This document shows, piece after piece, positions 1 through 34,780 of a stretch of DNA of 64,000 nucleotides. A program made the position numbers and the translations under genes. Where the stretch lies: NCBI RefSeq assembly GCF_044324875.1, contig NZ_CP172185.1. One strand, written 5' to 3'. Position 1 is the first letter of the stretch; each line of letters opens with the position of its first letter. The notes beneath the pieces were generated by a model that was not told where the DNA came from, searched no databases, and saw nothing but the letters and a program-made list of their open reading frames with translations. The DNA comes from Escherichia coli (lineage in GTDB: Bacteria > Pseudomonadota > Gammaproteobacteria > Enterobacterales > Enterobacteriaceae).

Positions 1-462
1 CTCCTGCATGGCTTTCAGATATGCATTTTCTGCGCGAAGATAACGCAGCTCATTCTTCATCTCTTCCGGCGTCATGTTTGCCTCGTTTTCATGGGTATCA
101 TCAGAACGGGTCATGCTTTTCTCCTTCCAGCGCCTGATAAAGGCCTCATTACCAGATTTGCGGTAGCCTTTTATCCAGTTTTTAACCGTGTTGTGGCTGG
201 GAATGTTAAACCGGGCAGCTACCCGGGGTAGAGACTCAGAATGCCCGAGAGCATAAAGAACCACGCAAAGTTTATCTTCAGGAGAATAGCTACGCTTGTG
301 TCTGCAATCCAGTGCCCGAGGACCGTGAAGAAGAAAAAGATTAATCCAGTGTGAGAGGCTGGTGTGAGAAAGTTGAAAGAGTTTTGCCGTAGAAATGATG
401 CCTGCATGACCAGCCAGGTAGTGATTTACAGCGGCAAGTTTTACTTCAAATGAATGTTTCAT
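1..462 (-). CDS. IS3-family transposase OrfA (5' complete, 3' end beyond window)
   Basis: Manual translation of reverse complement of 1-462; ATG at 460-462; typical IS3 OrfA architecture. Confidence 0.55.
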   Translation of the reverse strand, partial: MKHSFEVKLAAVNHYLAGHAGIISTAKLFQLSHTSLSHWINLFLLHGPRALDCRHKRSYSPEDKLCVVLYALGHSESLPRVAARFNIPSHNTVKNWIKGYRKSGNEAFIRRWKEKSMTRSDDTHENEANMTPEEMKNELRYLRAENAYLKAMQE

Positions 463-513
463 AAACTGCACCTTCAGATGTCAGATTATGTCCAACATTT
501 GGGGTGCAGTTCA
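1..513 (-). mobile_element. IS3-family insertion sequence, partial (runs off window start); terminus ...ggggtgcagttca at 501-513
   Basis: Minus-strand reading frame 462..1 has no stop and translates to an IS3-family OrfA-type N-terminal transposase protein (MKHSFEVKLAAVNHY...LRYLRAENAYLKAMQE, HTH plus leucine-zipper-like end); TGAACTGCACC-type terminal repeat 27 bp before gdhA stop. Absent from ORF track because it has no in-window stop. Confidence 0.6.
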
Positions 514-539
514 TTTGCGCTGTATCCGGCACAATTGTC

Positions 540-1883
540 TTAAATCACGCCCTGGCTTAACATCGCATCGGCAACCTTCACAAAACCGGCAATGTTCGCA
601 CCCTGCACGTAGTTGGTTTGCTCACCTTCACCACCATGCTCAACACAGGCATGGTGGATATCCAGCATGATGTGATGCAAACGCGCATCAACTTTCTCGG
701 CTTTCCACCCCAGGCGCGCAGCGTTTTGCGCCATTTCCAGGCCCGATGTTGCTACACCGCCAGCATTCGCCGCTTTACCCGGTGCAAACAGTACGCCTGC
801 CTGCTGGAACAGTTCAGTCGCTTCGATGGTGGTCGGCATATTTGCCCCTTCGGCGACGGCTTTAACGCCATTGGCGATAAGCTGATGCGCGGCGTCTACA
901 TCCAGTTCATTCTGGGTGGCGCAAGGCAGGGCGATATCAACCGGTACAGACCATGGCTGTTGGCCTTCGAGATAGACCAGACCAAATTCTTTGGCGTAAT
1001 CTGCCACTCGGCCATCGCGGCTGGCTTTGATTTCGATAAGACGTGCCAGTTTCTCTTTCGTGAATCCGCTTTCATCAACTACAGTGCCACTGGAGTCTGA
1101 CGCAGTGATCACACGAGCACTAAATTCCATCGCTTTTTCGATAGCGTACTGGGCGACGTTGCCGGAGCCAGAAACGGAAACGCGCATTCCTTCAAAACCC
1201 ATACCGTGGCGTTTTAGCATTGCTTCTGTGAAATAAACCAGACCGTAGCCGGTAGCTTCCGGGCGAATAAGACTGCCGCCAAATGAAAGGCCCTTACCGG
1301 TGAAGACGCAGGCGGTATTGTTGGAGAGCTTTTTCATCATCCCCGCCATAAAGCCGACTTCACGACCACCAACCCCGATATCACCTGCCGGAACGTCGGT
1401 ATCCGCGCCCAGGTGGCGATACAGTTCTGTCATCAGCGCCTGGCAGAAACGCATCACTTCACCTTCGCTTTTTCCTTTCGGATCGAAATCGCTGCCGCCT
1501 TTACCACCGCCCATCGGCAGAGTAGTCAGGGCATTTTTGAAAGTTTGTTCGAAGCCGAGGAATTTGAGAATGGAAAGGTTAACTGACGGATGGAAGCGCA
1601 TACCGCCTTTGTACGGGCCGATGGCAGAGCTGAACTGCACACGCCATGCACGGTTGACCTGTACTTGGTTGCGATCATCAACCCATACCACGCGAAACTG
1701 GATCACGCGCTCCGGTTCAACCAGACGCTCCAGTAATGACATCTGGCGATATTTCGGATTTTGTTCAAGAAAAGGCCAGAGTGTGGTCATTACTTCACGA
1801 ACGGCTTGCGCGAACTCGGTTTGATTCGGGTCGCGCTTTTGGACATGGTTGAGGAATGACTCCAGAGAATATGTCTGATCCAT
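540..1883 (-). CDS. gdhA: NADP-specific glutamate dehydrogenase
   Basis: 447-aa ORF, near-identical to remembered E. coli GdhA (MDQTYSLESFLNHVQKRDPNQ..., GSGNVAQYA dinucleotide motif); ATG at 1881-1883. Confidence 0.95.
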   Translation of the reverse strand: MDQTYSLESFLNHVQKRDPNQTEFAQAVREVMTTLWPFLEQNPKYRQMSLLERLVEPERVIQFRVVWVDDRNQVQVNRAWRVQFSSAIGPYKGGMRFHPSVNLSILKFLGFEQTFKNALTTLPMGGGKGGSDFDPKGKSEGEVMRFCQALMTELYRHLGADTDVPAGDIGVGGREVGFMAGMMKKLSNNTACVFTGKGLSFGGSLIRPEATGYGLVYFTEAMLKRHGMGFEGMRVSVSGSGNVAQYAIEKAMEFSARVITASDSSGTVVDESGFTKEKLARLIEIKASRDGRVADYAKEFGLVYLEGQQPWSVPVDIALPCATQNELDVDAAHQLIANGVKAVAEGANMPTTIEATELFQQAGVLFAPGKAANAGGVATSGLEMAQNAARLGWKAEKVDARLHHIMLDIHHACVEHGGEGEQTNYVQGANIAGFVKVADAMLSQGVI

Positions 1884-32352: not shown

Positions 32353-32919
32353 TACTTATTTGGTGGACACCACTTTGTCTAATTCGTCAGATTCTGACCA
32401 GACGGTTCAGGCTGTACGCTTACTGACCTTATCGGTCACCGCGCGGATGGTGGCTGTGGAAACGCTGAAGGCATATAAATCTTCAATCTCCCGACTGATA
32501 TCCTGGTAGCTCATTCCCAGCGCAAACAGGCGAATGATCTTGCGTTCGATCTCATCAGACAACGTGGTCTGGTGCTTCTTCACCAGTTGGGGTTAAAAAG
32601 TACCATTACGATCGCGCGGAGTCGCCAGTTCGAAGCTACCGGTCGGGGCTTTAATGGTCTTTTTGCCGGAGCCATTTTTACGATTGGCTTCCACATCCTG
32701 AGCCAGATGGGATTCAAGCTCTGCAGACAGGGCAGCCTAAGTTAACTGCTTGATTAATGACGTTAAGATTCCATCTTTGCCCGTTAATGCCTAGCCGGAC
32801 TGGAGTGCCTTAAGCGCTTTATCGAAATCGAAGGGTTGGGACATGTGTCATTCCTTTTTGATTGTATATTACTGGAATGACACAGAATTTCTAACACTCC
32901 CTTTTTAGATGAAATATAG

Positions 32920-33705
32920 TTAATCTTCGGTATGAATGTGTTGCAGCCAGTTTTTTATTACTGTATTTACTTCCTTTGCATGAGTGATATTTAGAGCGTG
33001 ATTTGCGTCGGGAATAACTTCAAGCTTGGAGTGTGCAATCACTTTGTGCATTTTAATTGCTTTCTCTAATGGGATTCCCATATCACTGTCACCATGAATA
33101 ATCAGTGTGGGGGTTGTGATTGTGTTAATTTTTTCTGAAATATCGTCACGTTCCAGCATTGCATTCATGGCATTTCTGATATTTTCTGGCTTATGTCCCA
33201 TCCATACTTTTTTCCATTTTTCTGCTTCAGAGACATTATTTCCGAAAAAAATGGGTAATAATAAGGAGATTATATTTTCCTTTATGATTGGGTCTTGCCA
33301 TCCATTACATAACTCCATGTAACTGGACGCGATTTCTGGTGGATCTTGCTCTGCCTGAGTTGCCATAAGGATTAGCCCTGACAAACGTTCTGAATGTGAC
33401 AGAGCAAATCGTAATGATATATATCCGCCCATCGACATTCCCCCTAAAACGAACTTATCCATTTGTAGTGAGTCTGCAACGCTTAAAATATCATCAACGA
33501 TATCATAGAGTGAGAAAGCTTCTGTTTTTTCAGTGTTTTTATCAAAACCCCGAACATTAATACAAACAAACCTGTGTTTTTCTTTTAGTTCGTCAAGTTG
33601 ATATTTAAACATGTCACTATTCATGAAAAATCCATGAACGAGTATGACTGGGGGATTATTTTTGTTTGTTTCAGTGTATCCAGAGTCAGCAAATGAATAT
33701 TTCAT
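32920..33705 (-). CDS. Alpha/beta-fold hydrolase (low-GC, likely horizontally acquired)
   Basis: 261 aa; HGFFMN oxyanion-region, nucleophile elbow GGMSMGG, C-terminal His (DANHAL); AT-rich codon usage. Confidence 0.7.
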   Translation of the reverse strand: MKYSFADSGYTETNKNNPPVILVHGFFMNSDMFKYQLDELKEKHRFVCINVRGFDKNTEKTEAFSLYDIVDDILSVADSLQMDKFVLGGMSMGGYISLRFALSHSERLSGLILMATQAEQDPPEIASSYMELCNGWQDPIIKENIISLLLPIFFGNNVSEAEKWKKVWMGHKPENIRNAMNAMLERDDISEKINTITTPTLIIHGDSDMGIPLEKAIKMHKVIAHSKLEVIPDANHALNITHAKEVNTVIKNWLQHIHTED

Positions 33706-34780
33706 GGAGCCTCCTTGATTTAGATGAATATATTGTGTGTTTTGTTAGTAATAGTGAAGCATTTCATTATATTGTCGAACTAGGATATATCTGTTGGATA
33801 AATATCCGTTTTAGAGTTTTTCAAATACTCGCCAGTTAAGACTCTTTTGGTGTGTTTACCAGTCTTGAGATATTGTTGTCAAGTATTTAAAAGGATATAA
33901 ACACACTGATTTAATGCTGATACTTATATATCAATAAATATTACCGGATGCCATGGTTAAAACTGGCTTATTTACTTCAGAAGAACAACGGCTAATGGAG
34001 CGATTGAAGTATTGTGGATATACCTATGCGAAGGTGTTTATGCTCGATTGGTTTTAGCAAACACGATAATATCCGAAAATTGCCTACATGGATAGATTTG
34101 TTAATTGCTATTAGCGGATGGGTAAGATTCATTGATGAGGCGGATTGATGGGCAAAGCCCCAGCCTCACGAACTGGTGGTCTTGAAAGCTTACATATTTC
34201 ATTTATTAAAGACGTAAACGTTTTAACTGTGTGGCATAAAAAGCAGAAGAGTGAAAATCCATAAATTACCGAATTATATCGGTGCCAGTCCGAATTTAGC
34301 CTTTGCACGGTTGCACGACTCATTGACTTCTCAGTTCTCACTGGACATGGCGAATTTTCTGTACGTTGATGAGGGATTTTCATATATCGTACAACAGGCA
34401 TTTCTTCCCGGTATTCCCTCAAGCGCAATACATCGGGGATTTTTCTGATTAGTGCCGATCATGCATCGGTGGAAAGGGGAGGTTTGTTCAGTAAGTCAGG
34501 TGGGGATAGTACCGCCAGCATCATCGGCTTCAGACCAGTAAAAAGAGACGCGGAAAAATATACAACAGGCACCACACGTCATGCATGGATTCAGATCGCT
34601 CATTTTTAGTACCATTTTAAAGTTTGACTTTGTATTTTTGCAACGAATCGCTAAAGAGAGCAGAAAAAACTATTCTCCAAAACTTGGTTATAACTACTTG
34701 ATTTTATAGATAGAGGCATGCTGTTTACACAGCAGTAAAAAGCATGCCAAATTTGCTATTAACCTTTTGAATATAAAATA

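Follow-up and report, generated by a model that had tools for sequence, protein, structure and literature searches.

How have two blocks of the E. coli core genome that lie 652 kb apart in K-12 come to be separated by only 26.6 kb of mobile DNA? In the window (the whole 64-kb stretch of E. coli DNA that we analysed), BLAST against K-12 placed positions 539-8197, the minus-strand block gdhA, ynjH, nudG, ynjF, ynjE, ynjD, ynjC and ynjB, at 1,843,715 down to 1,836,057, reversed and at 96.2% identity (98.6% to ECCNB12-2). Positions 34800-39490, carrying potB, potA, pepT and roxA, matched K-12 1,183,630-1,188,319 in K-12 orientation at 98.3% identity, and 50819-58942 corresponds to phoQ through icd. 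The initial annotation had reported this non-syntenic join of the gdhA-ynj and pot-pepT loci, and the K-12 coordinates bear it out; its junction estimates of about 8.2-8.4 kb and 34.7 kb were right to within tens of bases. The left break (8197/8198) falls 6 nt within the 3' end of ynjA, and the right break (34799/34800) 13 nt within the 3' end of potB. KOPS sites, Chi sites and GC skew were also examined for polarity. Within the core blocks (539-8197, 34800-39490 and 50819-58942) every hit was on the plus strand, but there were just three KOPS and three Chi sites, too few to carry meaning. We consider it probable (roughly 65%) that a crossover between copies of a module carried by an integrative island and a prophage made a large inversion with two novel junctions, and that the window contains one of them.

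The left junction is the distal end of an integrase island of about 90 kb that lies between ynjA and ynjB in other E. coli. Its attachment core, CTCCTTAGGAA, occupies 8187-8197, at the ynjA stop codon and the ribosome-binding region of ynjB. In SCU-115, where the island extends for about 90 kb from ynjB to an integrase adjoining ynjA, the same 11-mer (CTCCTTARGAA) occurs on both sides, one repeat adjoining ynjB and the other ynjA. The ynjB-island junction is identical in 27 complete RefSeq genomes. It had been proposed that the island replaces ynjA here, which is only apparent: the island meets ynjB at the usual attachment junction, and where the island is intact, ynjA is found at its other end. 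We found no relevant literature on an island at ynjA.

We assign 8198-23820 to the distal part of this island, supported by Pfam hits and by collinearity with ECCNB12-2, SCU-115 and the island contig L039 at 98.6-99.5% identity. It encodes DUF4942, DUF5983, CbtA/CbeA, RadC, antirestriction, DUF932, GTPase, YagK/Gp2-like, AlpA and ProQ proteins, and also carries an IS1 remnant, a transketolase fragment and transposase fragments, one of which (about 23639-23814) lies directly left of position 23821. Collinearity with the ynjA/ynjB island continues from 8198 as far as 28246, and 8882-28246, minus an IS3-family insertion, is 99.5% identical to L039. The closest relatives that we found for the left part of the window are poultry and human commensal-type E. 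coli.

The right junction corresponds to the attR site of a lambdoid prophage integrated where potB meets potC. Homology to K-12 resumes at 34800 (ACCTTCTTATTCAGCA), and the prophage end up to attR (34604-34799) has the same junction sequence in KFu019 and UTAK-1. This attR rebuilds the 3' end of potB, with a new C-terminus supplied by the prophage; the exact 287-aa PotB occurs in 1895 blocks of the public collection. potC is counted among the integration sites of Stx phages. Prophage right-arm genes follow, of which the last is a ykgJ-like remnant (34274-34603, minus strand; 85.5% identical to K-12 ykgJ and 89.7% to a "YkgJ family" gene beside potB in KFu019). Next to it is an alpha/beta-hydrolase cargo gene (32920-33705, minus strand; Pfam Abhydrolase_1), which prfC prophages carry between their tail fibres and attR and which also occurs beside potB in L016, L017 and L025-L031. 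The 3' fragment of a yagU-like gene (28875-29142, plus strand; Pfam DUF1440) is 89.6% identical to the 3' end of K-12 yagU and is present in all potB/potC-prophage relatives. Overall, at least eight independent assemblies have a potB/potC prophage whose right arm is collinear with 23821-34799. In one of these, L017, the segments 23821-26734, 28044-29981 and 32424-45646 form one contiguous piece (100% identity over 28044-29981 and 99.2% over 32424-45646).

Both outer junctions thus match canonical att junctions of mobile elements. This also bears on the tRNA genes, whose absence from both edges had been noted earlier and was confirmed by ARAGORN, which found no tRNA or tmRNA gene in the whole 64-kb window. 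The edges lack tRNA genes because both elements attach in or next to protein-coding genes, the island in the ynjA stop/ynjB start region and the prophage at the 3' end of potB.

Judged by its alignments, the linking DNA is a hybrid, island on the left and prophage on the right, and the switch between the two maps to a non-IS cargo module that both elements share. Homology with prophages at yfhH, btsS, ompW and potB/potC begins exactly at 23821, and the cargo module of the prophage right end, supported by Pfam hits, runs from there to 28861 on the plus strand. It comprises a spacer that follows the tail-fibre genes, a YadA-like adhesin gene (24650-26197), a gene for a sigma-70 region-4-like regulator (26259-26714) and a DinI-like gene (28411-28695, minus strand). 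The YadA-like gene is preceded by tail-fibre genes in L016, L017 and L025-L027. Modules with the YadA-like and sigma-like genes are widely dispersed in islands and prophages, with up to four copies per genome.

The interval common to the island copy and the potB/potC-prophage copy, which must hold the crossover, is 23821-28246 (3.1 kb without IS sequence). Within it the mismatch profile goes from island-like to prophage-like, with the parental copies represented by proxies from other strains (an SCU-115-type island and L017/L026-type prophages). Positions 23821-24000 have 1 mismatch to island copies and about 41 to prophage copies; from 28246 onwards L017 and L026, both with potB/potC prophages, show no mismatch, and the island copies diverge. 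Between these, 25200-28246 shows 0-1 mismatches per 200-bp bin to both SCU-115 and L026, and 24400-24600 is unlike either proxy parent, matching instead the prophage at yfhH. The island copies in SCU-115 and ECCNB12-2 end at 28246, where they are cut by IS1414. ECCNB12-2 also has IS1414 in its ompW prophage, again in the spacer between the sigma-like and DinI-like genes but about 130 bp beyond that point (blastn breakpoint at about 28372-28379).

The strands and order of these parts fit a single inversion between the potB/potC and ynjA/ynjB points, with K-12 breakpoints at 1,183,630 and 1,836,057. The YadA-like gene is on the plus strand with ynjB on the minus strand in SCU-115, and on the plus strand with potB on the minus strand in L026 and in the window; in K-12, ynjB is on the plus and potB on the minus strand. 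Given these pairings, the 3.1-kb module copies of the proxy parents would be inverted repeats on a K-12-ordered chromosome. We suggest that the ancestor had the island of about 90 kb between ynjA and ynjB and the lambdoid prophage at the potB/potC boundary, both at their normal sites. Both would have borne the same module of about 3 kb (the post-tail-fibre spacer, the YadA-like adhesin, the sigma-like regulator and the start of the DinI spacer) in opposite chromosomal directions. One homologous crossover between these copies would flip K-12 1.184-1.836 Mb, so that the part of the island next to ynjB becomes joined to the prophage arm next to potB. The predicted product, reversed gdhA to ynjB, island, module, prophage arm and then potB to pepT, is exactly the order of the window. 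The inverted span includes dif (K-12 1,590,750), with arms of 407 kb and 245 kb. No core gene would have been broken by the event itself, since the pot and ynj operons were already split by the mobile DNA in which the two breakpoints fall. A reciprocal junction is also predicted outside the window, running from potC through the left part of the prophage, the module and the rest of the island to the integrase and ynjA.

The initial annotation had favoured an IS-mediated inversion or translocation, as in Shigella-like genomes. The departure from K-12 order is real and the strands fit one inversion. IS sequence makes up about a fifth of the linking DNA, and the transposase fragment abuts the island/module boundary at 23821, two points in favour of recombination between inverted IS copies, or intramolecular transposition, as the origin of the join. 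Yet each of the three complete elements is a simple insertion whose flanking direct repeats match, which argues against IS mediation; non-matching, exchanged target repeats were not seen at any of them. The IS3-family element (26735-28043, plus strand, 1309 bp, with 99.9% copies elsewhere) is flanked by ATAT on both sides, and its site is empty, with contiguous flanks, in SCU-115, ECCNB12-2, L017, L026 and F1022. ISEc8 (IS66 family; 29982-32423, minus strand; Pfam hits, and 99.5% identity to the annotated ISEc8 of UTAK-1) lies between two copies of the 8-bp repeat TGACCTTA; L016 and L017 lack it and have contiguous flanks. It interrupts an IS256-family element with an internal 217-bp deletion (29378-32900, minus strand; 93-96% identical to a plasmid IS256-family copy), which has TTTTTAGA on both sides. 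L016, L017 and L025-L034 already carry this IS256-family element in a prophage arm that has not been rearranged, and it therefore predates the join. The 23821 boundary and the transposase fragment beside it are likewise old: they are common to the 27 genomes in which ynjA remains at the far end of the island and to related islands elsewhere at 93.7% identity. The IS elements in the linker thus look like bystanders, and we regard an IS-mediated origin as very improbable. A Shigella-like character is not supported either: the IS elements sit inside mobile DNA, and the core genes that we checked in the ORF list are full length. At the left edge of the window, the end of an IS1397 element (IS3 family; 1-513, minus strand, cut by the window edge) lies just downstream of gdhA and is 98.9% identical to annotated IS1397 beside gdhA in three RefSeq genomes. 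The initial annotation had this element replacing the gene next to gdhA, a reading that relatives do not support. In strain 23AR0806, IS1397 is a simple insertion between topB and gdhA, and in ECCNB12-2, which has no IS there, ynjI is also not annotated and the topB-gdhA gap is 76 bp.

Two further explanations concern the number of steps and the assembly itself. The history may have involved at least two successive rearrangements, such as an inversion and a partial re-inversion through repeats like IS1414, or else a translocation or duplication. The positions of IS1414 in the island copies of SCU-115 and ECCNB12-2 and in the ompW prophage spacer point in this direction, as do the third copy type matched by 24400-24600 and the up to four module copies per genome. 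We consider such a history improbable, as a single crossover accounts for every junction and strand in the window. The two-step route through IS1414 in particular would leave a potB-side arm (abhydrolase, ykgJ remnant and attR) beside potB in SCU-115-type strains; the SCU-115-type complete genomes lack this arm, which was found in that place in no complete RefSeq genome, and we rejected this route.

It is also conceivable, though in our view unlikely, that the chromosome has the normal order with an intact island and a complete prophage, and that the assembler or a mixed population switched paths in the inverted repeat of about 3-4.4 kb, giving an apparent inversion in a closed assembly. The switch falls exactly in a near-identical repeat (25200-28246), and an inverted repeat of about 3 kb is also where an assembler could change paths. 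None of 5426 complete RefSeq E. coli genomes covers the joint, and the hybrid was absent from the public contigs that we examined; look-ups of PotB, DinI, Gp2-like, YnjB and sigma-like proteins returned both parental contexts and no second hybrid. A 50-mer from the sigma-like gene had no match in a scan of GTDB species representatives, and exact look-ups of the YadA-like protein, made with two alternative start sites, returned no record. Short-read drafts from this lineage are uninformative on the long-range order because they are fragmented at these repeats: in L051 (99.89% identical over window positions 387-13006), the contigs stop inside IS1397 and inside the CP4-like module. On the other hand, the contig passes several multi-copy IS elements (IS1397, IS3-family, ISEc8 and IS2-like) and the core genes that we checked are full length, suggesting a long-read or finished assembly in which a repeat of 3-4 kb would normally be spanned. 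The polarity is also the biologically tolerated one, spanning dif with both blocks co-oriented with replication, which a random misjoin would produce only half the time. We infer that the exchange took place in the cell rather than in the assembler.

Sequence alone can thus trace what looked like a Shigella-type IS scramble or an assembly error to one particular crossover tract, and the 4.4-kb interval at 23.8-28.3 kb is the exact stretch on which the validity of the assembly turns. An inversion between island and prophage would add an island-prophage pair, in a different E. coli background, to the prophage-prophage terminus inversions known from O157:H7. More speculatively, the YadA-like/sigma-like module might repeatedly serve as a bridge by which pathogenicity islands and prophages recombine. 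Reversible terminus inversions could then coexist in a population, moving island cargo (aerobactin, sit) beside prophage genes and changing gene dosage or expression, although we consider this unlikely.

Each part of the locus has known counterparts. The distal gene module of the island (DUF4942, CbtA/CbeA, RadC, antirestriction, DUF932 and GTPase) is that of CP4-like islands (the yee/cbtA-cbeA module family). These usually adjoin tRNA genes, whereas the ynjA/ynjB island sits at the ynjA stop codon and ynjB start with an 11-bp direct repeat and its integrase beside ynjA. The lambdoid potB/potC prophages of KFu019, UTAK-1 and L015-L031 have an identical attR junction and replace the PotB C-terminus in the same way, but here the right arm alone (some 11 kb, IS elements included) lies beside potB, with the tail, head and integrase parts outside the window. 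IS-mediated inversions in Shigella and other IS-expanded genomes likewise depart strongly from K-12 gene order and have mobile DNA where the blocks meet; here, in contrast, the target duplications of the IS elements still match, and the crossover lies elsewhere.

Rearrangements of this type are well known, and the locus reveals no new mechanism. In E. coli O157:H7, terminus-biased, prophage-bounded inversions arise when homologous prophage sequences in inverted orientation recombine (Fitzgerald et al., 2021; PMC8743559). As in those large rearrangements (LCRs), the inversion proposed here is bounded by mobile elements at their native sites, with a crossover in inverted-repeat homology on either side of dif and intact core genes. 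It differs in that one partner is an integrase island at ynjA/ynjB rather than a second prophage, and in that the shared tract is an end-of-prophage cargo module of about 3 kb (3.1 kb in the proxies) rather than phage structural genes in repeats of at least 5 kb, as mapped in the O157:H7 study. The strain is also not O157:H7-like, and the inversion proposed for it is read from assembled sequence.

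The joining of the gdhA/ynj and pot/pepT regions proposed in the initial annotation is borne out by comparison with K-12. Positions 539-8197 (gdhA, ynjH, nudG, ynjF, ynjE, ynjD, ynjC and ynjB) match K-12 1,843,715 down to 1,836,057 at 96.2% in reverse orientation, while 34800-39490 (potB, potA, pepT and roxA) match K-12 1,183,630-1,188,319 at 98.3% in forward orientation, and the two blocks lie 652 kb apart in K-12. The junction coordinates were also correct, with K-12 homology ending at 8197 and resuming at 34800, as was the reported absence of tRNA genes (ARAGORN found none in the 64-kb window).

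At the ynjB side, K-12 homology ceases 6 nt within the 3' end of ynjA; beyond this point the window runs collinear with 27 complete E. coli genomes. Strain ECCNB12-2 matches at 98.6% up to 24733, then again to 26734 and over 28044-28246; L039, a contig carrying an island copy, matches at 99.5% over 8882-26734. In strain SCU-115 (NZ_CP054368.1 452,430-542,396; loci L006/L007) the island spans ~90 kb. A CP4-like module lies on the ynjB side; after it come the genes for aerobactin, sit and iha and many IS remnants, and a tyrosine integrase at the far end directly adjoins ynjA-ydjZ-ydjY-ydjX-xthA. The island also includes sodC. The 11-bp direct repeat CTCCTTARGAA occurs on both sides of the island and covers the stop codon of ynjA together with the ribosome-binding region of ynjB (window 8187-8197). 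This junction is the ordinary end of an island integrated site-specifically at a protein gene, and the location of the attachment site explains the lack of a tRNA at the island edge. Nor has the island replaced ynjA, as had been suggested; in the SCU-115 layout the gene is not deleted but belongs to the island's other end. Of the complete RefSeq E. coli genomes, 27 carry the integrase-bearing island, and our literature search found no paper describing it.

The potB junction is an ordinary prophage attR. K-12 homology starts at 34800 (ACCTTCTTATTCAGCA), 13 nt ahead of the K-12 potB stop, and the bases left of this point are identical to those ending the potB-adjoining lambdoid prophages in strains KFu019 and UTAK-1. 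The prophage end supplies a new PotB C-terminus, and the public collection lists exactly the resulting 287-aa protein in 1895 blocks. Exact-protein look-ups recovered at least eight independent assemblies (among them L016, L017 and L025-L031) with a fixed order after potB: a ykgJ-like remnant, an alpha/beta hydrolase, an IS256-like remnant, a yagU-like fragment, DinI and the sigma-like gene. Five of these (L016, L017 and L025-L027) continue past the YadA-like gene and reach tail-fibre and tail genes, while the other contigs end shortly after DinI. Since L017 carries window stretches 23821-26734, 28044-29981 (100%) and 32424-45646 (99.2%) as a single contiguous piece, 23821-34799 is the natural right arm of the potB/potC prophage. 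Prophages at yfhH, btsS, ompW and prfC carry related right-arm cargo too, and in all prophage copies homology to the window starts at exactly 23821. The arm also carries a diverged yagU 3' end (28875-29142, 89.6%) and ykgJ (34274-34603, 85.5%), in the order and orientation of the K-12 neighbours b0287-b0288 and split by a 5.1-kb cassette of IS256-like::ISEc8 and the hydrolase. Their arrangement suggests that an ancestral phage took up host DNA through imprecise excision.

Beyond roxA, an 11-kb satellite (39491-50818) precedes the phoQ to icd block (50819-58942), the next segment in the K-12 comparison. It encodes an integrase (39638-40888), an AAA_25 helicase (43632-45038), a lambda-E-type major capsid protein (46991-48046), a head decoration protein D (48058-48393) and a Nu1 small terminase (48711-49295), with no tail or large terminase genes within its limits. 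The element resembles a phage-inducible chromosomal island of the capsid-forming kind. UTAK-1 has the same kind of element at this site, and L017 matches at 99.2% as far as its locus reaches (window 45646). Downstream of icd, the window lacks the e14 prophage. Further on, a 1.33-kb IS3-family element, IS2-like by size and with Pfam rve/HTH_21 domains, lies between iraM and ycgX (59806-61136); a 98.2% copy sits in the sigma-DinI spacer of the potB/potC prophage of L016.

Island and prophage meet in a stretch common to both, with island sequence leftward and the prophage arm rightward. The island copies of SCU-115, ECCNB12-2 and L039 contain the same module, comprising the YadA-like adhesin gene, the sigma-like gene and the spacer towards DinI, over 23821-28246 (3.1 kb without IS), where it is cut by IS1414 with the rest of the island beyond. 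The mismatch profile changes along this stretch. Positions 23821-24000 have one mismatch to the island copies against ~41 to the potB/potC-prophage copies; over 25200-28246, each 200-bp bin shows 0-1 mismatches to SCU-115, ECCNB12-2 and L026, one of the prophage assemblies; and from 28246 rightward the window is free of mismatches to L017 and L026, with the island copies diverging. About 200 bp of the YadA-like gene (24400-24600) differ at ~40 positions from island and potB/potC-prophage copies alike, but at just 4 from the yfhH-prophage copy of strain F1022, so the copies compared here are not the exact parents. The pattern suggests mosaicism or gene conversion between dispersed module copies. 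GCA_964246605.1 has the identical sigma-like gene four times beside a YadA-like gene (L058-L061; two in islands, two in prophages), and the collection lists the protein in 5466 blocks, so the module is very common as a dispersed repeat. ECCNB12-2 (L001 45160-45362 and L011 12001-14007) has IS1414 in the sigma-DinI spacer twice, in its island copy (breakpoint at window 28246) and in its ompW prophage, where blastn places the breakpoint some 130 bp away at ~28372-28379, a hint that island and prophage copies exchanged sequence earlier.

The orientation of the module copies suggests how the blocks came together. The YadA-like gene and ynjB are on opposite strands in SCU-115, as are the YadA-like gene and potB in L026 and the window. 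Given that ynjB is on the plus strand and potB on the minus strand in K-12, the two copies form inverted repeats on a K-12-ordered chromosome. One crossover between them would invert the intervening segment and is predicted to give reversed gdhA..ynjB, then distal island, module and prophage right arm, then potB, potA and pepT, which is the order in the window. A deletion between direct repeats would instead link the potC side with that of ynjB. The inverted span (K-12 1,183,630-1,836,057) includes dif at 1,590,750, which splits it into arms of 407 kb and 245 kb; a shift of dif by ~160 kb would follow, with both blocks keeping their orientation relative to replication.

We put the probability that a real inversion underlies the join at about 0.65, and the shared cargo module is most likely its agent. 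The initial annotation was therefore right about the kind of event, a rearrangement and most likely an inversion, but not about IS elements as its agent, nor is the genome Shigella-like. An IS-mediated event is very improbable, despite the IS elements in the linking DNA, which are bystanders. The IS3-family element at 26735-28043 has ATAT on both sides and is absent, with contiguous flanks, from every relative examined. ISEc8 (29982-32423) is flanked by TGACCTTA; L016 and L017 lack it and overlap by these 8 bp. The IS256-like element (29378-32900), flanked by TTTTTAGA, is already in all un-rearranged potB/potC prophage arms. The boundary at 23821, with a transposase fragment immediately to its left, is old and is common to the 27 syntenic genomes and to related islands at other loci (93.7% identity). 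There is likewise no evidence that an IS replaced the gene beside gdhA. The IS1397 (IS3 family) end at 1 to ~513 is in the same place in three complete genomes and is a plain insertion in the topB/gdhA interval of strain 23AR0806, and ECCNB12-2, without the IS, has a 76-bp topB-gdhA gap and no annotated ynjI. Draft contigs of the window's lineage (L051, 99.89% over 387-13006) also stop within IS1397.

A misjoin or mixed population is an unlikely but appreciable alternative to the inversion, as an assembler switching paths at the inverted module repeat would yield an identical sequence. The joint was found in none of 5426 complete RefSeq E. coli genomes, and drafts of the window's lineage break at the repeats. 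Neither the GTDB representatives nor the exact-protein index include the source genome. A history of several steps seems improbable. In practical terms, the analysis names the exact interval, 23.8-28.3 kb, as the part of the assembly needing validation.

In O157:H7, recombination of inverted homologous prophage sequences is an established source of terminus-biased, prophage-bounded inversions, which appear within single-colony cultures (PMC8743559). The join described here is most likely a further case of this already known class of event.
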